From the IMG/VR virus record IMGVR_UViG_2778261202_000006, positions 1 through 41,660 of that record: 41,660 nt of DNA; one strand, 5' to 3'. Shown here piece by piece: positions 1 to 22,147 of the stretch. The position numbers and the translations under genes were made by a program. How positions within the stretch are numbered: position 1 is the stretch's first letter; every line of letters begins with the position of its first letter. Below the pieces are notes generated by a model. The model was not told the origin of the DNA. It made no database searches and saw only the letters and a list, made by a program, of their open reading frames with translations. Origin of the DNA: a virus. Lineage: Duplodnaviria; Heunggongvirae; Uroviricota; Caudoviricetes.

Positions 1-1158
1 ATGCTCACCGTTAAGCAGATTGAAGCAGCAAAGCCGAAAGAAAAACCATACCGCCTACTCGATGGTAATGGCCTGTATCTTTATGTCCCTGTATCAGGGA
101 AAAAGGTATGGCAGCTTCGCTACAAGATTGACGGTAAGGAGAAAATCCTGACCGTCGGAAAATATCCGCTTATGACTTTGCAGGAAGCAAGGGATAAGGC
201 ATGGACTGCGAGGAAAGACATCTCGGTTGGCATCGATCCGGTAAAGGCGAAAAAGGCTTCGTCTAACAACAATTCATTTAGTGCGATTTACAAGGAATGG
301 CACGAGCACAAGAAGCAAGTCTGGTCTGTAGGGTATGCGACTGAACTTGCAAAAATGTTTGATGACGACATTTTACCTATCATCGGCGGCCTTGAAATTC
401 AGGATATTGAGCCGATGCAACTGCTGGAAGTAATCCGCAGATTTGAAGATCGCGGTGCAATGGAGCGAGCCAACAAAGCCCGCAGAAGATGCGGCGAGGT
501 TTTCCGTTACGCTATTGTCACCGGAAGGGCTAAATATAACCCGGCACCTGACCTTGCAGATGCCATGAAAGGATACCGCAAGAAGAACTTCCCGTTTCTT
601 CCTGCAGACCAGATCCCGGCATTCAACAAAGCACTAGCAACATTTTCAGGAAGTATCGTATCGCTTATTGCGACTAAAGTTTTACGCTACACAGCCCTCA
701 GAACAAAAGAGCTTCGTTCCATGCTATGGAAGAACGTCGATTTTGAAAACAGGATTATCACCATCGACGCCAGTGTGATGAAGGGCCGCAAGATTCATGT
801 TGTTCCTATGTCAGACCAGGTGGTTGAACTTCTCACTGCGCTAAGCTCCATCACTAAACCAGTATCAGAGTTTGTTTTTGCCGGGCGCAACGATAAGAAG
901 AAGCCAATCTGCGAGAACGCGGTATTGCTTGTGATCAAACAAATCGGCTATGAGGGTCTGGAAAGCGGTCACGGATTCAGGCATGAATTCAGCACGATTA
1001 TGAACGAGCACGAATGGCCTGCTGACGCTATTGAAGTGCAACTTGCACATGCCAACGGCGGATCTGTGCGCGGAATTTACAACCATGCTCAGTATCTCGA
1101 TAAACGCAGAGAAATGATGCAATGGTGGGCGGACTGGATTGATGAAAAGGTGGAGTGA
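1..1158 (+). CDS. intS: Tyrosine integrase, P4-type (DUF4102-like N-terminal arm-binding region plus C-terminal catalytic domain)
   Basis: 385-aa ORF; N-terminus LTVKQIEAAKPKEKPYRLLDGNGLYL typical of P4-family integrases; C-terminal H..R..H..Y-type region (HGFRHEF, HANGG..RGIYNH); sits at prophage end. Confidence 0.85.
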   Translation: MLTVKQIEAAKPKEKPYRLLDGNGLYLYVPVSGKKVWQLRYKIDGKEKILTVGKYPLMTLQEARDKAWTARKDISVGIDPVKAKKASSNNNSFSAIYKEWHEHKKQVWSVGYATELAKMFDDDILPIIGGLEIQDIEPMQLLEVIRRFEDRGAMERANKARRRCGEVFRYAIVTGRAKYNPAPDLADAMKGYRKKNFPFLPADQIPAFNKALATFSGSIVSLIATKVLRYTALRTKELRSMLWKNVDFENRIITIDASVMKGRKIHVVPMSDQVVELLTALSSITKPVSEFVFAGRNDKKKPICENAVLLVIKQIGYEGLESGHGFRHEFSTIMNEHEWPADAIEVQLAHANGGSVRGIYNHAQYLDKRREMMQWWADWIDEKVE

Positions 1159-1389: not shown

Positions 1390-2421
1390 ATGCGCAATAT
1401 TTCTATGGATTTGTTAAGGGTAATGTGCTGCATGTTTGTAGTAGCTATACATGTTACTCCTGATTACGGCAATACTGTAATAAATGGATATCCTCTTGCA
1501 ATACAAACATGGTCTTTAGTAATTCAATCGATTGTAAGATCTGGCCTGCCAATTTTTTTCATATTAAGTGGGTATTTTCTTCTAAACAGAAAGGGTGCTG
1601 AAGGTGGTGTCAAGTACTTTAAGAGAATTGCCGCCTTATTAATACCTTTCTTAATTTATGCTTTCCCTTATTATATACTTTTCTACAACGGGACTGTTAG
1701 CTTTTATGGAGCCCGTCAATTTTTAGATTACATTTTTGAAGGTAGCACATCTTTATCCTCACATTTTTGGTTTATATATACCATGCTTGGAATATATATT
1801 TTATATCCAGCAATAAAATTTATAACAGATAGAATTAGCGATGAGAATTCATTTTCCGTTATCATTTTCATGATTTTATTAATAACTTACCAAGCGTACT
1901 CTAATCAACTAGGATTATTTATTAACGGTTTTCACAATGTAATTCCAATACAAAACTTAGATACGTGGGTTATTTATTTTATATGTGGAGGCATGATAAA
2001 AAGAATAAGCAATATAAACATTAATCTTTGGATTACAATTCCTTTGCTAGTAGTTGCAGAGATGCTTCTAGTTTATTTTAGCGTCAATAAATATGGTTTT
2101 AACACTTACCCTTATGATACCAATCCTGTTATGCTTGCACTCACCCTATCAATTACATATGCATTTACCAAGCTGCATAATATTAACATCAAATTATCAA
2201 AATTAACACAGTTCACTTCTAGTTATACCTATGGGTTATTTCTCATACATATACTTGTGTTAATTAAAACAAGGGATTTTATATCACCATATTTTGATTA
2301 CCAATACAGCATTTCAATGACAGCGATGCTTTTTGCATTGACATTTTTTATTAGTTTAACAATTGCTATAATTGTGGACAATGTTTTTATAAAGCCTATC
2401 TTTAATTTACTAAAGCTTTAG
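1390..2421 (+). CDS. Integral-membrane acyltransferase (acyltransferase-3 family; O-antigen acetyltransferase-like, serotype conversion)
   Basis: 343-aa very hydrophobic ORF with N-terminal DLLRvmccmFVVaiHv motif typical of acyltransferase_3; markedly AT-rich relative to surrounding phage DNA; located between integrase and tailspike as in Sf6-type phages. Confidence 0.7.
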   Translation: MRNISMDLLRVMCCMFVVAIHVTPDYGNTVINGYPLAIQTWSLVIQSIVRSGLPIFFILSGYFLLNRKGAEGGVKYFKRIAALLIPFLIYAFPYYILFYNGTVSFYGARQFLDYIFEGSTSLSSHFWFIYTMLGIYILYPAIKFITDRISDENSFSVIIFMILLITYQAYSNQLGLFINGFHNVIPIQNLDTWVIYFICGGMIKRISNININLWITIPLLVVAEMLLVYFSVNKYGFNTYPYDTNPVMLALTLSITYAFTKLHNINIKLSKLTQFTSSYTYGLFLIHILVLIKTRDFISPYFDYQYSISMTAMLFALTFFISLTIAIIVDNVFIKPIFNLLKL

Positions 2422-2458: not shown

Positions 2459-4321
2459 TCAAAAATCATTTCCCTCCCATGAGCATGCTGTTATCGAACA
2501 CGATAAGAACTTAAAAAAATAAGCGCTGGTTGTTGTTGGTGCTATTTTTAGTCCCAAAGCTATATTTTTAGCTGTTTCTAAACAAACTGATATTCCAGAA
2601 TTGTTATTTAGCGTATAAGAACGCATGGGTGTTAATGTGTAATAATCATCAGTTGTATAGAATATTTCCACAGTAGTGCTTGAGTCAGTGGCATGATCTC
2701 TATACCCAATTGAAATGGCAATACTATTCATTGTTTCTATATCAAGTGCAGCATTCCCACCACTATTTCTGAATGCCAGCCCTGAATCTGAGAATGCTTG
2801 ATGCCTTTCATCTGTTGGTGTTCCGGTATTCAATACCGCCCATGGCCTCACATCATCTGATGTATATGTCTGATTCAGATTCCTGATAAGTCCGCCGACA
2901 CCAAGTCCTGGCCCCCACAGATAGTATTTGTACTGATAAGATTCTTGCTCAAAAATATTATTGAAAACTCTTGCTTGTTTATAGAAATCATTATCTGTAA
3001 TTATATCAAGGTGCGTTGGATCTGCTACTGATGACTCCCAAGAAAAACTTGCATACGATCCATCACCAAAGCGGAAAAAACTTTTAGAAAATGAAATTTG
3101 CTTTTCTTTATTCGAAAAAACATCTCCAGTAAAAAGACCAACAGCAGGAATCAGCTTTGCATGTGAGGATTTATACTTTAACTCACCAAAAGAAATAATA
3201 GCATTCTTTTTATTGTCAACATCAGATACTGTCCCAATGTAGTAATAATCGACAAAAATAATATCATAATGTTTTGAGATGGTATCATTACCATATCCCC
3301 AATCGCCGTTATCAGCAATACAAAGTGACTTCCCTGTAACAGCTCTCCATGCATTGATTCTGGCATCTTGTTCCGCAACTGAAACCCCCTGATGCTGGGG
3401 TTCATCAAATAAATAATAACCTATTACACAGTCCCTTCTTCCTAAAGACACAATATCAGGTGGTGGCGTATCATTAGGGCTATTGATTATGACATTAATT
3501 CCAACAGCTTCAGCAGCATTGCATGCTTTCTCAAATGTTCCACCATCCGTAAAATTGTATCCATAATGAATAATCGTATTGAAACCAGCGGTCTTAAGCT
3601 GAAGCATATCACATATATCGAAAACACCATGAACCCATGTAGCCTTCATTTTTGAATGATTCACAGGAGTGTAACTATCAAGATTACACGGGACTGAAGG
3701 CCTACGGGTATAAGTAATGGTACTCTTCCCTTCTATCTTGGCACCATTAGGCCAGTCGAAGCGAGACAGAGTTATATTACCGCTAATATAAGCCTTTCCT
3801 GTTCGTTTAATTGCCTCAAGTATCGACTGTTTTGCATCAATGCCGGGGTTTGAATAATCATATCCAAAAAGGGCTATATCAGATTCATTATAAATCTGAT
3901 TATCAATATTTTCTTGTACTGTTTTACCATTACTTGAGCCAATAAGTGATGCCCCTGACGAAGTGGAAATCTCTTGTCTTAACTGATCTGGATCGTACTT
4001 CAATACATTAGGAAAATTGAACTGCAGAGAACCATACGCATCATAAACAGCCATAGAATGGCCTTGCACAGTTACGAATTTGGCAATCTGTCCGTTATAT
4101 ACAGGGTAACCAGCGGCGTTAATGATGATTGGTTGCGAAACAGGAACGTGAGATCCATCTTCGTTCTCTACATAAACCTGAATCTGGTTTTCAGGATTTA
4201 CAGGGTCAGTGTCAATTTTACCAATATAAATTTTGCCATTGGCTACGGCTTTAAAAGAACGAGCCATAGTGAAGAGTTGCGAAGGCATGCTTACCACAAC
4301 ATTTGCGGTGATATCTGACAT
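2459..4321 (-). CDS. gp9: Tailspike protein (P22 gp9-type N-terminal head-binding domain, divergent receptor-binding/enzymatic domain)
   Basis: From internal ATG at 4321 the protein begins [43 protein letters not shown], matching the P22 tailspike N-terminus; GGAG SD 9 nt upstream; six-frame ORF extends 16 codons further upstream to 4369. Confidence 0.9.
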
Positions 4322-4409
4322 TTCATTACTCCAGACGAATGATATGATGCAACCATGATGTGATTGCATACCGAAATGGTACTATTGAGTATTTATCCAG
4401 TAGGTTACG

Positions 4410-4709
4410 ATGCCATTCCACCCAACTGGTGAGGCATCAAGGATGTACAGCAAATACGACGAGGCGCAGTTTCACTTGATACTTCCGCATGAACTCCACG
4501 CGAAAATTAAGCAGCGTGCGAAGATGAATAACAGATCGCTGAACTCAGAGATAATTGCAGCGATTGAAGAATCGTTGACTAAACAAAGCTCTGCATCCGT
4601 TTACATTGACGATGCAGAGCGTATGGCAGAACAACAATCTGATATGGTTAAGAAAATGGTTTTTGAAACGCTTAAGACCATGTATAGCAATAATAAAAAG
4701 GAAACATAG
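4410..4709 (+). CDS. mnt: Mnt-like ribbon-helix-helix repressor
   Basis: Similarity to P22 Mnt along its length (..NNRSLNSEIIAAIEESL.. and ..DDAERMAEQQSDMVKKMVFETLK..); alternative start at ATG 4443 would give a protein closer to Mnt length; divergent from tailspike. Confidence 0.75.
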   Translation: MPFHPTGEASRMYSKYDEAQFHLILPHELHAKIKQRAKMNNRSLNSEIIAAIEESLTKQSSASVYIDDAERMAEQQSDMVKKMVFETLKTMYSNNKKET

Positions 4710-4779
4710 AAATCTAGTTTCCGGATAAAATGGCATTGCCTTCATGATATCCTGTGAAAAACTAAGGAGAGTTAACCAT

Positions 4780-5265
4780 ATGAAAAAATCACTGTTAATT
4801 ATCCCGCTTCTGCTGGTTGGATGCGCAAAAGTAAGTGACTATCAAGCAAGTTGCGAACAACGCTATCAAAAGCTTAGCGATATGGCTAATTGCCTTGATG
4901 CCAGTGTGAAGAACGACTCACGCATGGCATCAGCACCAACACCTAAGCTGTATGTCCTTGCTGCAAAGATGCTCGGGCAAGGTGTCGATGAAGGCAAGAT
5001 AAGTGACGCACAGGCAAGACTTGAGCTTCAGAATCTTTATGTTCAATTACAAAGCCAAGAACAAGCCCAACAAATAGCACAAAGCCAAGCATTCCAGCAG
5101 GCTTTATTGAATTATCAGGCTGTAAACACAATGCAAGCGATCGAGCAAAAAGCGCGCCAGCCTGTTATAACTCAACCTTACCCAACACGCGTTGACACAT
5201 ATACAAACTGCAATTCAGGGTTTGGAAATACAGTCACATGCAACAGTAGCAGTAACATAAGATAA
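4780..5265 (+). CDS. Lipoprotein, Gln-rich, function unknown (candidate superinfection-exclusion or lysogenic-conversion factor)
   Basis: Start at ATG 4780 preceded by strong SD AAGGAGAG; signal peptide MKKSLLIIPLLLVGC with lipobox LVGC and Ala at +2; co-directional directly downstream of mnt. Confidence 0.65.
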   Translation: MKKSLLIIPLLLVGCAKVSDYQASCEQRYQKLSDMANCLDASVKNDSRMASAPTPKLYVLAAKMLGQGVDEGKISDAQARLELQNLYVQLQSQEQAQQIAQSQAFQQALLNYQAVNTMQAIEQKARQPVITQPYPTRVDTYTNCNSGFGNTVTCNSSSNIR

Positions 5266-5355
5266 CAATCAGCAAAGGTATTGCCTATGCAGAGTGGTAC
5301 GATAAACCTCGCGTTCTACATATTTGGTTTTTGCACGTTCCTGGTGTTTGAAAAG

Positions 5356-7353
5356 CTATTCTGACAACGCATCAGACTTAGCCCCCTGCGTCAGAGCGTT
5401 AATTGCCTTTTGTGCCTGCTGCATTGCTTTCTCAAAGGCTGTTGATCCGCGTGGGGTGTTTGCCATTCGGAGCATTGCATTTCTGAATGGTTCGCTCTCA
5501 TAGGCGCGAGTAAGAAGTCCGTAGCTTACCGCTGCGCCAGTTGTCGCCGGGTTCATTGCCGTCCCATACCCGATAATGAACGGGATGGTTTGCTGCCCTG
5601 TTGGTGTTGTTACTGCCGCTTTTGCTGCCTGCTGAGTGGACTGAAGGTAATTTTTCAATCCTTTCAGATAAGCAGCGTCCTGCCCCTTAAATGTGATGCC
5701 AGTCTGGTTTTGCAGGATGTTAATCTGCCGAAGGAACTGGTCAGGGGATCCGCCAGATTTCTCCATCGCCTTTCCAATGATGCCATTGCGCATTTGCGCC
5801 CTGCCAACACGACCAACTGAGTTATACAGCGTCTTAATTTCCGATTTGTTCTTGCTAAATAGCATGTTGTTGACAACTTCCGGCGTCAGGTCACCTTTCA
5901 TGAGAACATTCTTCAGCCTGGTATTCTTTAGTTTAGCCGCTTCGTCAGCGTAGACGGCATTGGCCTGCTGATATTTACGGAGAGTATCGTTGCCAAGATT
6001 CTGACCAATGGCACCATTGATATCGTCAGTCATTGCCTTGTAAACGCGCTGAATGGCAGCATCGGAACGGTTTGGTAACACTGGTCGCTCACCCTTCACG
6101 TCCATTCTGAACTGGCTGCGCAGATCGCTTAATTGCTTCAAATCCAGATTTACCGGACCATCAGGACCAGCATTGCGAACAAGCTCATCACGATAGGACT
6201 GAAGTTTTGAAATAGTCTCGTTATCAGCGACCTTGCCAAGCTTCTGCAGGTTAGATATTTCTGTATCAATCTGCTGAATTGCTCGCGCAGGCTGAATGTT
6301 TACTCCAGCCATAGCATTCTGAACCTGCTCCAGTCGATTACCGGCGGCACGACGAATTCCTGATGTTTTCGCTTTTAGGCTGTCAATAACAACCGCTGGA
6401 TCATACTCACCGAATTTATCAGCAAATCTCTGCACCAACTGGCTTCTCGCTTCCTGTTGCGTTGCTCTCATTCCGCTTGTGCCAGCCAGAGGGATATTTT
6501 CTGCTGTAGTCTGCGCCATTTTTCCGACGCGGGAAGTAGGCTGTAACAGGTCTGTGGTGTGCAGAGGAACTCCTTCACGCTCTGCAAATCTGATAGCCTG
6601 CTGCGCTTCTGGCGCAATAGCACCACGAACGCCACGATAAGCAGCACCTAATCCACGTCCGGCAGCGTTAATAGCACCGCCAGCCAACACACCAACGCCT
6701 AAATCGGTGGCGAGTGCTTCCGCATCATCTTTCGCACTATTTGCAGCAAGTGATCCAACTGCGTTTTCTGCGAGAAGTCGTGTTGCCCCATGAGCAATTC
6801 GACCAGCAAGTGTTGGTGCCTGTGTTGCCGCCCTCTCAACGCCAGCAGGAGTGAGGTAAGGCAATGCTTCAGCAAATACCCTTCCCTCTGTCGTTTGTGG
6901 AGTCAGCGCGCCTTGCTGAAGGCCAAAGTCCTGCTCTAATCCCTGCGTTGTTACTCGTGGCGCTGGTTGATATGTACCATCGCCAATGCCGAGTTTACCG
7001 CCAGCCCAAGCCGCCGCGCTTGTTACAGCATCTGCAACTGATGCAGGTATGTTTGCCACGTTCACGCCAGCCTGCACCAGTCCGCGACCAGTCTCTTTCA
7101 CTGCTTCACCAAGATCAGACATAAATCCACTTTGCTGTGGTTGTTGCTGTGCTACTGGTTGCTGTGTATCCACTGGCTGCACAGATGGCAATGGATAGGC
7201 AGCATAGAAAGCTTGCTTAGCCTGCTCTGCATTTTCTCCGGCTTGCGGGGCCACGACTTCATTGAAGTATTGCTCCTGAGCCTGCGCTTTTTGTTCTGGT
7301 GCTAACGCCTGATACTGTGGAGAGGCGATAACATCTTTCCATGCTTTAGCCAT
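5356..7353 (-). CDS. gp16: Ejection (E) protein, P22 gp16-like
   Basis: 665 aa; N-terminus [30 protein letters not shown] matches P22 gp16; position after gp20. Confidence 0.85.
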   Translation of the reverse strand: MAKAWKDVIASPQYQALAPEQKAQAQEQYFNEVVAPQAGENAEQAKQAFYAAYPLPSVQPVDTQQPVAQQQPQQSGFMSDLGEAVKETGRGLVQAGVNVANIPASVADAVTSAAAWAGGKLGIGDGTYQPAPRVTTQGLEQDFGLQQGALTPQTTEGRVFAEALPYLTPAGVERAATQAPTLAGRIAHGATRLLAENAVGSLAANSAKDDAEALATDLGVGVLAGGAINAAGRGLGAAYRGVRGAIAPEAQQAIRFAEREGVPLHTTDLLQPTSRVGKMAQTTAENIPLAGTSGMRATQQEARSQLVQRFADKFGEYDPAVVIDSLKAKTSGIRRAAGNRLEQVQNAMAGVNIQPARAIQQIDTEISNLQKLGKVADNETISKLQSYRDELVRNAGPDGPVNLDLKQLSDLRSQFRMDVKGERPVLPNRSDAAIQRVYKAMTDDINGAIGQNLGNDTLRKYQQANAVYADEAAKLKNTRLKNVLMKGDLTPEVVNNMLFSKNKSEIKTLYNSVGRVGRAQMRNGIIGKAMEKSGGSPDQFLRQINILQNQTGITFKGQDAAYLKGLKNYLQSTQQAAKAAVTTPTGQQTIPFIIGYGTAMNPATTGAAVSYGLLTRAYESEPFRNAMLRMANTPRGSTAFEKAMQQAQKAINALTQGAKSDALSE

Positions 7354-13275: not shown

Positions 13276-14571
13276 TCACGCGGTCTGGTTAGGCAGACCA
13301 ACACCAATTGCCTCTGGTCGTACAGCACATGCTGAATACCACACAGCAATACGGCACTTACCAGACAGAGTGTTGATATCACCCTGCGTTGCGAAGATGC
13401 CGTTAACACCAATACCAGGAATGCTGAAGGAAGACGTTTTCATGCCAGCAAACAGTTCATGGGTTACCGGGATCGGCTGAGACAGCAGGCGGATTGAGTC
13501 ATCAGCCCAGAACACGTTAGCGGTGGTTGTTGCCACGTTCAGAACGTTTACCGGAGTGGTATCAGCAAGAGAGGTGTTTACGTTAGCGTAAGCCTTCTCT
13601 TCTTTTGTCAGTGACGCGTCATCCAGTGCAATCGGCTTCGGCGTGATTTCGATGTGAGTACCATCGATCACACGGGTGATTGAGAAAGTAGCATCATCAG
13701 TCAGCACGTTCTTCGCCATCTGAGACAGGAATTTCACACCAGTGAAGCTGATTTTGTCGCCGCGCTTAAACCCGGTGGTGGAGGATACGGTCACCGTTGC
13801 AACACGGTTGTCGACGTTCTCTTTGTTACCATCGGTATCAAGAGTGTATGCCTGCGGCTTAAACTTCTGCGCACCAGAAACAGTTACACCAGTAGCGGTT
13901 GACTTGGTAACTGCCGGAAGTTTCGGTGAGCGAAGAATTTCATCAAAGCCAGCAATCTGACGCTGAATAGTACCGTTGCGATACGCTTCTTCAGGAACGC
14001 GACCGAAGATGTCACCATCTACCAGGTTGCGGCCTGCTTTGCGGTAATCGTCAGGGTTCAGGAAGTAACTGATGCCCATATCGCGGTTTAGCTCACGGGA
14101 GAACATCAGGCGCTCTGCATCAGACACAAAATCCCAGCCAGACAGGCCAGTAGATGGACCAATTGCGCGGGTATCGTGAACAACAAGCGAGCCCATTTCA
14201 GTTGCCTGTTTGGCAATTGCTGACTCAATGTTATTCGCCAGTTTTTTGGCGGATGCCTGGATGCGGCGACGGTAAGAACGCTCATCACGCAGGTCATCTG
14301 CACGAAGCTCGAAGAAATCGTTATCCGGATCGCCCATGTTGCATTTCACGGAGAGTTCCAGAATCCCGGTTGCGTTGCCAGTTAAATCCCAGCCAGTCTG
14401 GGTTGGCGCTTCCTGCTCAACAGGCATCCACACGGTGTTGCTTGAACGCTGCATGGATTCTGCCGGAGGGGTGTATTTTGTCACTTTGGACGCCATTGGC
14501 GTCAGGTTCTGGACGGTTTCGATGATTTCATCCAGAGCATACGTGACCAGTTGACCTTCATTTAATGCCAT
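13276..14571 (-). CDS. gp5: Major coat protein, P22 gp5-like
   Basis: 431 aa; N-terminus [27 protein letters not shown] and overall similarity to P22 coat protein. Confidence 0.95.
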
Positions 14572-15495: not shown

Positions 15496-17664
15496 TTATT
15501 GAGGTGTCTCGGCTACTCCGCCGGAGGGGATTTGAACTTGACGCATAAGATTCGCGAAATCCATGCGTTGTGAATGAGTCTGGTCTGCATCTTTAAGAAG
15601 CAGCTCAGCGTTAGCACGAGCATCTTTGCTGCGCTGTTGCTGGAATTGACCTACGAGCTTGAGGTACTCACGCAGTTCTGCCTGCTTGTCGAGGTCCATA
15701 TTGTTGAAGATTTCTGCAATCTTCGCGGCGTTGAGTTGGTTTTGGGCTTCAACCTTGGCGGCTTCAACCTGAATCTGCGCCTGTTGGTTCTCTGCCTTGA
15801 GCAATTCAGCCTGACCTTGCAGAAGGATACCCTGCGCCTGAATTTGCTCTGCTGATGGCTGCTGCGGCTGTTGTTGTGCCTGCTGTACCATCTCCATTTC
15901 TTCAGGTGTTTCTGGTTTCTTCAGCCCCATCATCACCAGTTGCTTGTTAGCGTACTCTCGCATCATCTCGACGCCTTTACCGTCAAGCAGCGTGAAGTAT
16001 TGCAGCATCAGCATCTGGAACTCTGGAGTACCTTGCGGAACCTTGGTGAGCAACTCCTGAATCTCTGCGCGGTTCTGTTCCTTCATACTCTGGAAGGATG
16101 GTCCAACGTCTGTATAGCACTCATAGCGACCGCGAATGTCGTTGAGTGTGACCACATTACCGGACTGGTAATCGACAACTTGCGCGTAGAGTTGAACGTC
16201 TTTCTCGCTACCATCTTCAAGTGTCAGCGTTACATGACGAGGAACGTCATAAATATCGTTGACCATTGAGGCATAAATCTCGCCATCACGTCGCATTGCG
16301 GTAGCCAGGTTATCCTGAAACACGTATGTCTCAAGGTCTGCCCGCATGTTCAGTTGATTGACGGTATCGAAAGCGACCTGACTGTTTGCTGCCTGCGCAT
16401 CCACGCCAAGACTAGCCACCTCTTTCACTGCGTTGGTGGCAGCCTCAAGCATGTAAGCGTTGGCTTGCGGCACTTCAGGGTTTTCCATGTAGGAGATTGG
16501 ACCAATCGGAAGGTCGTTACCGTTTTCATCGGTCTTGTTCTGCAGATAGTACGGATAGTCATCATTTCCACCGTACATGTATTCGTAGCCTTCGATTTGC
16601 TCAGGGAAGAAGGTAGGTTTCTTCTTCGGTGAACGAGCAACAATATCGGCGTTGAACGACATGATCATGTTACGAAGGCGCTGACCGTCTTTCGTCAGCC
16701 TTACCACTCCTTCGTAGCACTCCTTGTCACCAGCGAATGACCATTCGCCATACACTGGAACGATTGGAATATGCTCTCCGGCTATCTTCTCGCGATCTTT
16801 CAGTATCTGCGTGCAGGTGATGATCGACTTATACACACGCCGACGCTTCACCTTGCGCTCTGCTACCTTAATGAATCCACGATTAGCCAGGTCGTCGATG
16901 ACGTCTTTGATATCCTGCTGGTAATAGCTGACCGGCTCACCTGTCAGCGGGTCGCGGTAGATGAAGACCTTCTCCTTCTTCTCTTCTACCTCGTAATACT
17001 CAGCGACATAGACGACATCATTCGATACCCACGGGAACAGCCATGTATCGTTCGGATTCTGGAAAGATGGCAAGGTGTCCGGATCAATACCGTAATCCTC
17101 TGCGAACTCTTTCCAGCCATTGCGCGACAAGGCGTTAATCACCGTACAGTGCTTAGCGTCGCTCTTATCCATCTGCTTGCTGTTGGCGTCCCATATGACG
17201 TGTGAGCAGGCTTCATGAATTGGCAGGCGTCGAATTACCTGATTGTTGCTTGTTGGGTCGTTGTCTTCGTACTGTGTGACCAGACGCCATGCACCAACGC
17301 CGGACTCTATCTGCTCACGAACGCCAACGTTAACGGCAATCTTTGCCGTGTTATGGCGCATATCGGTACGATACATTCCCATCAACACATCGGCAGCATC
17401 AGGATTAGCGCCGTCTTTTGGTCGGAAGAGAACGTCGATAGGGTTCCGGCGCATCTCTGCGACCAGTTTCCTGACCACCGGGCGAACAACATCGAATTGT
17501 CCGCGATATTGCAGGGTAGTGTAGTTTGATAGCCAGTCATCCCATTGGCTTATGCGACTGAAGTATAAATCGTTAGAAGCTTCTGTTCTCGCCTCGTCGG
17601 AAGACATCCAATCAACATCGAATGCTTGCAGTATCTTATTTAATCGCTCTGCGTTGTCAGTCAT
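15496..17664 (-). CDS. gp1: Portal protein, P22 gp1-like
   Basis: 722 aa; strong similarity to P22 portal along the length (..[40 protein letters not shown]..). Confidence 0.95.
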
Positions 17665-21259: not shown

Positions 21260-21802
21260 TTAATTGGTGAGTCCGGGGATTACGGTTTGCCCGTGCTGTT
21301 CAAGACGTTCAATTCTCGCCAGTAGCTGAGGCTTCTTAATTTTTCCCCAGCGATTGAGCAGGCGGCCTGACATGCTGGCAACATCCTTCTCTTTCATGTA
21401 CTCCAGCATTACGGCATTTCTCTCTTCTTCAAATTGACGATGACCAACCTGAAGCATGGCGTACATCCAGTTGAATGCGTTGATGTAAGCAATTTTGATA
21501 CGCATTGCTTCTTTTTTGGTGTAGGACATAACCAAAAGCATCAACCCATCCTTGCGGAGACGGTAGAATTTTTGCGGCTTACCATTCTGTAACTCATTGT
21601 TTTTATAGCAAAGCTCAAAGTTGAGCTTTGTATCAAACTCAGGAGGGCAAGCTTCTATGGTTCGTTCAATGTCACGAACCACGTTCTTCGGCAGCTTTCC
21701 AAATGCTTTTGCCACCATAAAAGAATCTGTAACCGGATCGTTGTTTGCTACAAAAATTAGGTCTCTGAAATCTATATCGTTAACAACGGTTGGGTAGTTC
21801 AT
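21260..21802 (-). CDS. rha: Rha-family phage regulatory protein (antirepressor-like)
   Basis: From ATG 21802: ..FMVAKAFGKLPKNVVRDIER...KFYRLRKDGLMLLVMSYTKKEAMRIKIAYINAFNWM.. resembles Phage_pRha family; six-frame ORF extends further upstream to 22048. Confidence 0.7.
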   Translation of the reverse strand: MNYPTVVNDIDFRDLIFVANNDPVTDSFMVAKAFGKLPKNVVRDIERTIEACPPEFDTKLNFELCYKNNELQNGKPQKFYRLRKDGLMLLVMSYTKKEAMRIKIAYINAFNWMYAMLQVGHRQFEEERNAVMLEYMKEKDVASMSGRLLNRWGKIKKPQLLARIERLEQHGQTVIPGLTN

Positions 21803-21947
21803 TGCGTCTTTACCTTTTAGAAAGATGAGCCTGTTCGCACAGAAAAGCCGTCCCCGAGATGGTCGCCACCATATACGGCAATTCTCAGGCTCAGCTTTCT
21901 GAAAGACTCGGGGTTTATATGCGCTGCGATGCGCGTTTACTGAGGAC

Positions 21948-21975
21948 ACAAAAAAGCCCCGCGAATGCGAGGCTA
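21948..21975 (-). terminator. Intrinsic terminator downstream of Rz
   Basis: Minus-sense GCCUCGC-AUUC-GCGGGGC hairpin followed by UUUUUU. Confidence 0.55.
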
Positions 21976-22147
21976 AATCCTGGTATTTGTAATGACTGGC
22001 TCTTATCTCAACGCAGCCCCTTACCGCGCGCAAAATGCTCAATATCAAGCATCAGCAATGAGATGTTTAATCTGGATTCACTCCAGAAGTGAGCACCACC
22101 CTGTCTACAGAGCCAGATGTGAAGGATGATGAGTAAAATTATCGCTA

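Follow-up and report, generated by a model that had tools for sequence, protein, structure and literature searches.

In the IMG/VR virus record IMGVR_UViG_2778261202_000006 (41,660 nucleotides, hereafter the window), which in its entirety is a P22-like (Lederbergvirus) prophage of E. coli in reversed orientation, the interval between the homologues of tailspike gene 9 and DNA ejection gene 16 contains a rightward homologue of the P22 repressor gene mnt, a rightward lipoprotein gene, and a 25-codon open reading frame (ORF) in the same direction (Table 1); the minus-strand homologues of ejection genes 16 and 20 lie beyond the lipoprotein gene. The corresponding interval of P22 (NC_002371 annotation) holds sieA, orf59a, mnt, arc, sar and ant, together with mapped promoters and operators. 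Searches of the entire 41.6-kb window with tblastn returned zero arc or ant homologues, bearing out what an initial annotation made from the sequence of the window had reported, and P22-type sieA is absent both from the window and from every other locus compared here, the P22 SieA query having matched P22's own locus only. The segment lying between gene 16 and gene 9 was named the 'ant moron' by Villafane et al. 2008 (PMC2629481); the window has a variable, non-morphogenetic gene set between its homologues of these two genes, and its locus is an ant moron variant of a P22-like E. coli prophage from which arc, ant and sieA are gone.

An orphan mnt beside an uncharacterised gene has already been described at this position, and the arrangement itself is not new. 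Ten ant moron types were distinguished among sixteen genomes, and mnt plus a gene whose function is unknown are all that remains in ST64T, ST104 and Para1 (PMC2629481); phage L is in the same state, with orf62 as the partner gene beside mnt, and its authors asked whether mnt is a remnant or has some other role (PMC8022706). The window resembles ST64T, ST104 and phage L in having mnt without arc or ant next to a gene of unknown function, and differs from ST64T and L in the identity of that gene. At least 80% of positions 4250-5400 is present in 106 of 5,426 complete E. coli genomes (~2%), among them E. coli B7A, which has the same arrangement at 97% identity; Fig. 3 of PMC2629481 depicts the B7A prophage. 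The locus is thus an ordinary one: the ejection-tailspike gene interval of P22-like phages changes fast, and this is one among its many known variants. Like the immI part of the P22 ant moron it lies antisense to the late operon, encodes a homologous Mnt with its tetramerisation domain, and has the mnt promoter (Pmnt) and a candidate operator at homologous positions, with TATTGAG common to both. It differs from P22 in the absence of arc, ant, sar, orf59a and sieA, in a decayed ant promoter (Pant), in a beta-strand of type Q-H-(R/I) rather than H-N-R with a different operator core, and in having the lipoprotein gene and the 25-codon ORF in the place of orf59a and sieA. New here are the operator candidate, the selection acting on mnt together with the R13I allele of the window, and the finding that the lipoprotein gene is an independent cassette occupying the sieA position.

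Table 1. Features of the mnt-lipoprotein locus and flanking genes, in coordinates of the window
Feature	Position	Strand	Remarks
mnt homologue, 88 aa	4443..4709	+	Ribbon-helix-helix domain and Mnt tetramerisation helix; same coordinates in PGAP annotation
Lipoprotein gene, 161 aa	4780..5265	+	Shine-Dalgarno sequence AAGGAG 4764-4769; signal peptide; lipobox LVGC; +2 Ala
ORF for 25-aa hydrophobic peptide, MQSGTINLAFYIFGFCTFLVFEKLF	5287..5364	+	Overlaps gene 16 end by 9 nt
Candidate Mnt operator core, TACCGAAATGGTA	4369..4381		4-bp arms, 5-bp centre; P22 Omnt position
Pmnt homologue	4385..4411	+	-35 TTGAGT 4385-4390, 15-bp spacer, -10 TACGAT 4406-4411; by positional homology to P22
Inverted repeat ATGCAA-N11-TTGCAT, ATGCAACCA-TGATG-TGATTGCAT	4347..4369		Repeat of the initial annotation; 9-nt arms, one mismatch, 5-nt loop
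Candidate extended -10 element, TGATATCCT	4745..4753	+	Putative lipoprotein promoter
Terminator-like hairpin inside mnt	4581..4620	-	Perfect 10-bp arms 4588-4597 and 4611-4620, then UUUGUUU 4581-4587
Tailspike gene (P22 gene 9 homologue)	2459..4321	-	Last late-operon gene; Pfam Head_binding, residues 1-113, E 1e-64
Gene 16 homologue (DNA ejection protein)	5356..7353	-	Right border of moron region
Integrase	1-1158		
O-antigen acyltransferase (Acyl_transf_3)	1390-2421		

The mnt product contains a ribbon-helix-helix (RHH) domain (Pfam Arc PF03869, E 8e-13, above the curated cutoff) and a tetramerisation coiled coil (Pfam PF11423, Repressor_Mnt, E 4e-12), and it matches PDB entries 1mnt (E 7e-18) and 1qey (E 1e-6). 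The gene almost certainly starts at ATG 4443 and not at 4410: this ATG is preceded at 8 nt by a Shine-Dalgarno (SD) sequence, GGTGAGG, yields an N-terminus that aligns with P22 Mnt, and is the start assigned by the Prokaryotic Genome Annotation Pipeline (PGAP) in a 99.9% identical E. coli prophage. The initial annotation therefore described correctly an Mnt-type RHH gene divergent from the tailspike gene, while its start at 4410 and its 88-bp spacer give way to a spacer of 121 bp (4322-4442). Six loci (L117, L122, L132, L147, L148, L150) and E. coli M160133 have an additional 600-700 bp separating mnt from the tailspike start, annotated in M160133 as an HNH endonuclease gene.

His6, Asn8 and Arg10 are reported to be DNA-contacting residues of P22 Mnt (Knight & Sauer 1989), and position 13 of the window protein aligns with P22 Mnt Arg10 and Arc Arg13, a residue reported to contact DNA (Knight & Sauer 1989; Raumann et al. 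1994). At the three P22 positions the window protein has Gln, His and Ile, and 119 of 121 relatives have Gln, His and Arg, so that the DNA-facing side of the beta-strand reads Q-H-I as opposed to H-N-R in P22, a difference which, as first remarked in the initial annotation, implies a different operator. The window protein has FHLILP where 119 of the 121 related loci have FHLRLP; the R13I substitution, present in 2 of 121, results from ATA in place of AGA at codon 13 (4479-4481), and with Ile instead of Arg facing the DNA, this particular copy probably binds the operator less strongly.

The position at which such an operator would be expected is given by P22, where the annotated operator AGGTCCACCGTGGACC directly precedes TATTGAG, the sequence containing the Pmnt -35, and overlaps the start of the opposing Pant. 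Aligned to P22, the window reads CATACCGAAATGGTAC-TATTGAG, which places the palindrome TACCGAAATGGTA at 4369-4381. The palindrome found at this position changes with the beta-strand of the accompanying repressor: GGTCCACCGTGGACC goes with HFNFR (P22), GACCAC(T/C)GTGGTC with QFNLR (720R6-like), TACC(G/T)AAATGGTA with QFHLR (window type, VSe13), and GGTATAACCGTTATACC with QINIR (L054). The TACC-N5-GGTA element is retained in all 30 distinct intergenic variants that go with window-type Mnt, including six in which the DNA on the left is entirely different, with a breakpoint just left of ACATACC. Operator, Pmnt and mnt thus travel as one module, and on this pattern TACCGAAATGGTA is the likely, though still candidate, Mnt operator.

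The inverted repeat to which the initial annotation had drawn attention is indeed present in the control region, with its description as ATGCAA-N12-TTGCAT at 4346..4369 corrected to a spacing of N11 and the coordinates of Table 1. Were Mnt to bind it, regulating both an mnt-lipoprotein operon and the tailspike gene, its location between the two divergent starts would be apt, one allele class has an A-to-G change that makes its 9-bp arms perfect, and for P22 a possible influence of the ant moron and its repressors on the amount of tailspike has been suggested (PMC2629481). This proposal is nevertheless very improbable. The repeat lies off the P22 Omnt position and its frequency is at chance level: of 100 shuffled versions of the window, 14 contained the ATGCAA-N11-TTGCAT pattern at least once, and the 551-bp region around the repeat has 18 inverted repeats whose arms measure 6 nt or more. 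It is missing from six upstream variants (VSe13, L014, L088 and three more), which all keep TACC-N5-GGTA and encode the same QFHLR DNA-binding domain; it is in other words exchangeable where the operator candidate is not, and as a control element of this repressor it has to be given up. As an RNA structure the repeat was likewise discarded, its fold being not unusual (z -1.2).

Tailspike control of the kind suggested would also call for a promoter facing left. The counterpart of Pant in the window has a -10 decayed to TAAATA, with no T at -7 and a 15-bp spacer, in the VSe13-type and 720R6-type orphan arrangements there is no -10 whatever, and no leftward promoter is predicted. There is therefore no basis for the suggestion that Mnt controls tailspike initiation, and the operator would no longer repress either an antirepressor gene or the tailspike gene. 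The rightward promoter fares better, in that its -10 is invariant over 24 intergenic variants and its position is homologous to the annotated Pmnt of P22 (TTGAGA-17-TATCAT). The centre of the operator candidate lies ~43 bp upstream of the predicted Pmnt start, a position unsuited to simple autorepression.

The window has three copies of TACC-N5-GGTA where 0.21 would be expected, the extra ones, TACCGGAGTGGTA (13549-13561) and TACCGGACTGGTA (16158-16170), falling in the coat and portal genes. We rejected these as operators: Sf101, which has the same Mnt, keeps the operator copy only, Gally has none, and the copy in the coat gene is lost in IME10 despite the same coat and portal. They are probably due to chance or codon usage. 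A Rha-family regulator gene (Phage_pRha and ORF11CD3 domains; 21260-22048, minus strand), whose place between the lysis and terminase genes is that seen in P22, Sf101 and Gally, was considered as a target of Mnt and set aside, there being no operator-like site nearby.

What maintains a repressor gene whose facing promoter has decayed is the question raised by the strength of the constraint on it. Across all 121 family loci extracted, the mnt ORF is 86 or 88 codons long with a premature stop in none, and the ratio of nonsynonymous to synonymous polymorphism (pN/pS) of the RHH domain is 0.024 (62 distinct alleles); the orphan mnt family is clearly functional and under strong purifying selection. 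These values are incompatible with neutral decay of the family, and together with the joint movement of operator, Pmnt and mnt as a module they render improbable the view that mnt is a functionless remnant of a deleted immI, beside which the lipoprotein gene alone matters and is served by its own promoter. That view, which echoes the 'remnant' option raised for the mnt-like gene by the authors of the phage L genome (PMC8022706), draws on the loss of arc, ant and a usable Pant, on the Ile at a DNA-facing position where nearly all relatives have Arg, and on lipoprotein genes that occur in some loci without any mnt and are preceded by a conserved -10-like element. For the single mnt copy of the window it may be correct; for the family it is not.

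Conversely, strong purifying selection on a DNA-binding domain whose target promoter in cis is gone is what one would expect if the orphan Mnt conferred immunity in trans, silencing the antirepressor promoter of incoming P22-like phages with the same operator type and so protecting the prophage from induction. P22 Mnt acts on the ant gene of a superinfecting phage. In the P22 prophage it maintains lysogeny by repressing ant ('maintenance of lysogeny' in the P22 record; PMC2629481). As the whole account of the gene we nonetheless consider this, too, improbable. P22 Mnt controls an adjacent arc-ant operon; arc and ant are missing from the window and from all 80 of the closest loci with this Mnt type, and among them no phage with a matching Omnt-Pant-ant arrangement was found. 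Retention of mnt could reflect autoregulation, a guard in trans against the antirepressors of incoming relatives, or something else.

Several observations make it plausible that mnt and the lipoprotein gene are co-transcribed. No terminator is predicted in the 70-nt gap between them, and a hairpin at 4700-4722 was dismissed as a terminator for being small and without a U-run. The linkage persists at deep divergence, with a gap of 17 bp in Proteus phage vB_PmiP_Brookers, one of 60 bp in Tatumella, and the order mnt-orf153-lipoprotein in Providencia. Brookers has the tailspike/mnt/lipoprotein/gene 16 order of the window without arc or ant, its lipoprotein is 55% identical, and its gp15-gp14 are annotated as 'Arc family DNA-binding protein' and 'putative lipoprotein'; it differs from the window in a QFNLR-type Mnt, a P22-like operator and the shorter gap. 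L067 has lost its mnt ORF but retains Omnt, Pmnt and the leader, now joined to the region upstream of the lipoprotein gene. The orf153 product, encoded in the Providencia alcalifaciens prophage L007 (3519-3980), is a 153-aa predicted membrane-anchored protein, its gene tightly packed between the other two.

The lipoprotein gene may in addition have a promoter of its own. A TGnTAT(C/T)CT-like element upstream of it is kept across several junction classes, taking the form TGGTATCCT where the junction is of the orf59a or VSe13 class, TGCTATTCT in Tatumella L008, and TGATAATCT in the metagenome-assembled genome L009, which is without mnt. By analogy with P22 sieA, which has its own promoter, the likeliest arrangement would be read-through from Pmnt combined with a weak promoter directly upstream. 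The suggestion that Mnt has been repurposed to control the operon is supported neither by the position of the operator candidate, upstream of the Pmnt -35 and not over the promoter, nor by the 12 different upstream gene sets with which the lipoprotein gene is found, some of them without Mnt.

The unannotated ORF downstream of the lipoprotein gene is possibly the third gene of this unit. All 100 loci that hold its core have it intact and unchanged in length, with a pN/pS of 0.32 and no PHROG match. In the lipoprotein-less loci examined (e.g. L135, L139), mnt is followed directly by the 25-codon ORF with its strong SD sequence GGAGG, and homology between forms with and without the lipoprotein gene resumes exactly at the ATG of this ORF.

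The lipoprotein begins MKKSLLIIPLLLVGC-AKV..., in which the lipobox matches [LVI][ASTVI][GAS]C, so that the same-strand lipoprotein gene of the initial annotation, with its strong SD sequence and outer-membrane type of lipobox, stands as described, starting at 4780. The lipobox Cys shows no variation among 33 homologues, and in a wider set of 40 at least 90% have it. In E. coli, Asp at position +2 of a mature lipoprotein directs retention in the inner membrane, and Ala predicts sorting to the outer membrane. Of the 33 aligned sequences, 29 have Ala at +2, two have Val and two Thr; 13 more distant relatives add Gln and Ser to the residues seen there, and none of these sequences has Asp. By this rule the protein is predicted to be sorted to the outer membrane.

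The sole family match of the protein is PHROG 6067 (unknown function; E 2e-110), with no family in Pfam, NCBIfam or PADLOC and no match in PDB sequence searches with either the single protein or a profile. A profile search of 1.8 billion representative sequences retrieved 247 related clusters, consisting mostly of ~130-aa lipoproteins with the same four cysteines; no named distant relative was found. Close homologues occur across the Enterobacterales, and a pN/pS of 0.058 (55 alleles) indicates strong purifying selection. A confident AlphaFold2 model built from a deeper alignment (predicted local distance difference test score, pLDDT, 90.8) comprises a small helical domain (residues 18-70), a long helix (76-125) and a C-terminal beta-hairpin (139-159), with no hydrophobic membrane-spanning helix past the lipoprotein signal, and this predicted fold has no match among solved structures. 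Conserved cysteines 25 and 38 lie in the helical domain and 144 and 154 (alignment numbering) in or next to the hairpin, and each pair would form a disulfide. A search of one literature library found no mention of the lipoprotein accession, its PHROG, or the Brookers and Gally locus tags, and the lipoprotein is not discussed in the paper on SieA (PMC10883804).

The mobility of the lipoprotein gene was assessed in 80 IMG/VR loci whose lipoprotein is at least 97% identical to that of the window. It adjoins gene 16 wherever a gene 16 homologue was detected and always has the sieA orientation, in agreement with its placement in the initial annotation at the P22 sieA/immI position, and it never occurs together with P22-type sieA. 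What lies upstream varies: window-type Mnt directly upstream in 40 loci, P22-like Mnt and orf59a in 10, P22-like Mnt and a different opposite-strand lipoprotein in 9, ant only in 8, a complete arc-ant-mnt-orf59a set in 3, and others, some without any Mnt, in the remaining 10. The junction with these upstream DNAs shifts within 20-40 nt of the lipoprotein start codon. Among 80 loci collected instead by the window Mnt type, 35 are missing the lipoprotein; since homology in such loci resumes at the ATG of the 25-codon ORF, the cassette can be delimited to ~4740-5286. The lipoprotein gene is therefore an independent cassette in the sieA position, carried with more than 95% identity by phages Gally, vB_EcoP-720R6 and Salmonella VSe13. 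Together with distant relatives, ~130 phage copies were examined, every one of them in the gene 16-gene 9 region and, where a gene 16 homologue could be detected, immediately beside it.

The different opposite-strand lipoprotein of the 720R6/Gally-type arrangement is a second, unrelated protein of 139 aa (MKRIIGVVAGAILLSGC...; PHROG 6823, unknown function), encoded for example in L002 at 1964-2383 on the minus strand and also in L033, L065, L066, L068, L071 and others, on the strand opposite to and between mnt and the lipoprotein gene; the moron region can therefore hold two different lipoprotein genes.

We estimate a probability of roughly 55% for the following explanation of the locus as a whole, an orphan Mnt and a prophage lipoprotein forming one unit of the ant moron. 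A rightward unit would run from Pmnt through mnt and the lipoprotein cassette to the 25-codon ORF, antisense to the late operon and, by analogy with P22, likely expressed in the prophage. Mnt of the QFHLR type would bind TACC-N5-GGTA directly upstream of the Pmnt -35, and with Pant gone it may be kept for autoregulation or for action in trans on incoming phages that have the same operator. The lipoprotein would be transcribed by read-through from Pmnt, from its own weak extended -10 promoter, or from both, and would be exported, lipidated and sorted to the outer membrane. There it would serve as a prophage-expressed envelope factor, most likely in superinfection exclusion at the adsorption or DNA-delivery step.

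Exclusion is favoured among possible envelope functions because the lipoprotein fills the slot of P22 sieA, and by this analogy we regard such a role as plausible. SieA is the superinfection-exclusion protein of P22, a blocker of DNA entry (PMC10883804). The lipoprotein gene resembles sieA in lying beside gene 16 and in being transcribed opposite to it, and the two are positional alternatives; SieA is a prophage-expressed envelope protein, and the lipoprotein is expected to be the same. The likeness ends at the proteins themselves: SieA is a polytopic inner-membrane protein with the motif FxRYPxEAxxFNK (PMC10883804), to which the lipoprotein has no sequence similarity, its own predicted location being the outer membrane. 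A closer parallel in kind of mechanism may be Cor (phi80/N15/HK022), T5 Llp and F-plasmid TraT, small outer-membrane lipoproteins of mobile elements that exclude phages. No homology to these proteins was found, Cor and Llp being matched only through the signal peptides of other proteins, and its predicted fold, a helical domain, a 50-residue helix and a disulfide beta-hairpin, has no counterpart among solved structures.

Should exclusion be its function, one may speculate further that the lipoprotein, with or without the 25-aa membrane peptide, represents a new class of superinfection-exclusion protein of P22-like phages, anchored in the outer membrane, whose ~50-residue helix and disulfide tip extend into the periplasm and block assembly of the trans-envelope channel formed by the ejection proteins gp7, gp20 and gp16, and which provides a functional alternative to the inner-membrane SieA drawn from a widespread, uncharacterised bacterial lipoprotein family. 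We offer this as a tentative idea and think it rather unlikely to be right in full.

A number of observations weigh against the explanation we prefer. On the regulatory side, the operator candidate has arms of 4 bp only, with TACA as the left arm in five loci, and is no less diverse (0.025) than the intergenic region as a whole (0.027); the Pmnt spacer falls 2 bp short of its length in P22, 720R6 and VSe13; and a sigma-70 consensus scan left the Pmnt homologue below threshold and did not call the candidate lipoprotein promoter. With regard to the lipoprotein, it has no sequence or fold likeness to any known exclusion protein, and in at least two loci, L090 and L103, its frame is split into two tblastn pieces by an apparent frameshift, so that the gene is apparently lost on occasion. 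Finally, distant family members are found in ordinary chromosomal contexts, at least one of them in a non-phage setting among the housekeeping genes uvrC, ung and earP, so that an envelope function unrelated to phages is equally compatible.

This last point, along with the 247 clusters of mostly four-cysteine relatives and the lack of a match to any PADLOC defence model, is the substance of the possibility that the lipoprotein promotes host fitness or envelope homeostasis, in the manner of lambda Bor, and is no exclusion protein at all. The phage copies speak against it, since all ~130 of them occupy the position of P22 SieA; a host-fitness role is a possibility we take seriously but think unlikely.

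If the lipoprotein of this mnt-lipoprotein unit does exclude phages, the host range of therapeutic and typing phages would be affected, the gene being strongly conserved and present in prophages of ~2% of complete E. coli genomes as well as in Salmonella, Proteus, Providencia, Serratia, Klebsiella and Yersinia. Independently of this, the natural pairs of Mnt beta-strand and operator constitute a test set for rules of ribbon-helix-helix recognition, and the constraint on orphan mnt puts the question of what a repressor does once its antirepressor has been lost.

The genes that border the moron region are readily identified. The tailspike gene is labelled 'phage head-binding domain-containing protein' by PGAP in the 99.9% identical E. 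coli prophage, and the gene 16 homologue, 34% identical to P22 gp16, is annotated in relatives as 'DNA transfer protein' or 'P22-gp16 family phage DNA ejection protein'. Within mnt, ~260 nt upstream of the tailspike start, lies a terminator-like hairpin that has its UUUGUUU run on the minus (late-operon) strand only. The minus-strand RNA is predicted to fold with -21.8 kcal/mol (z -3.6), a stability reached in 0 of 200 shuffles. Its arms are intact in 108 of 121 loci, the neighbouring loop wobble base varying freely, and diversity at third codon positions is 0.011 in the arms and T-run compared with 0.098 in the remainder of mnt. The hairpin could modulate read-through into the tailspike gene.

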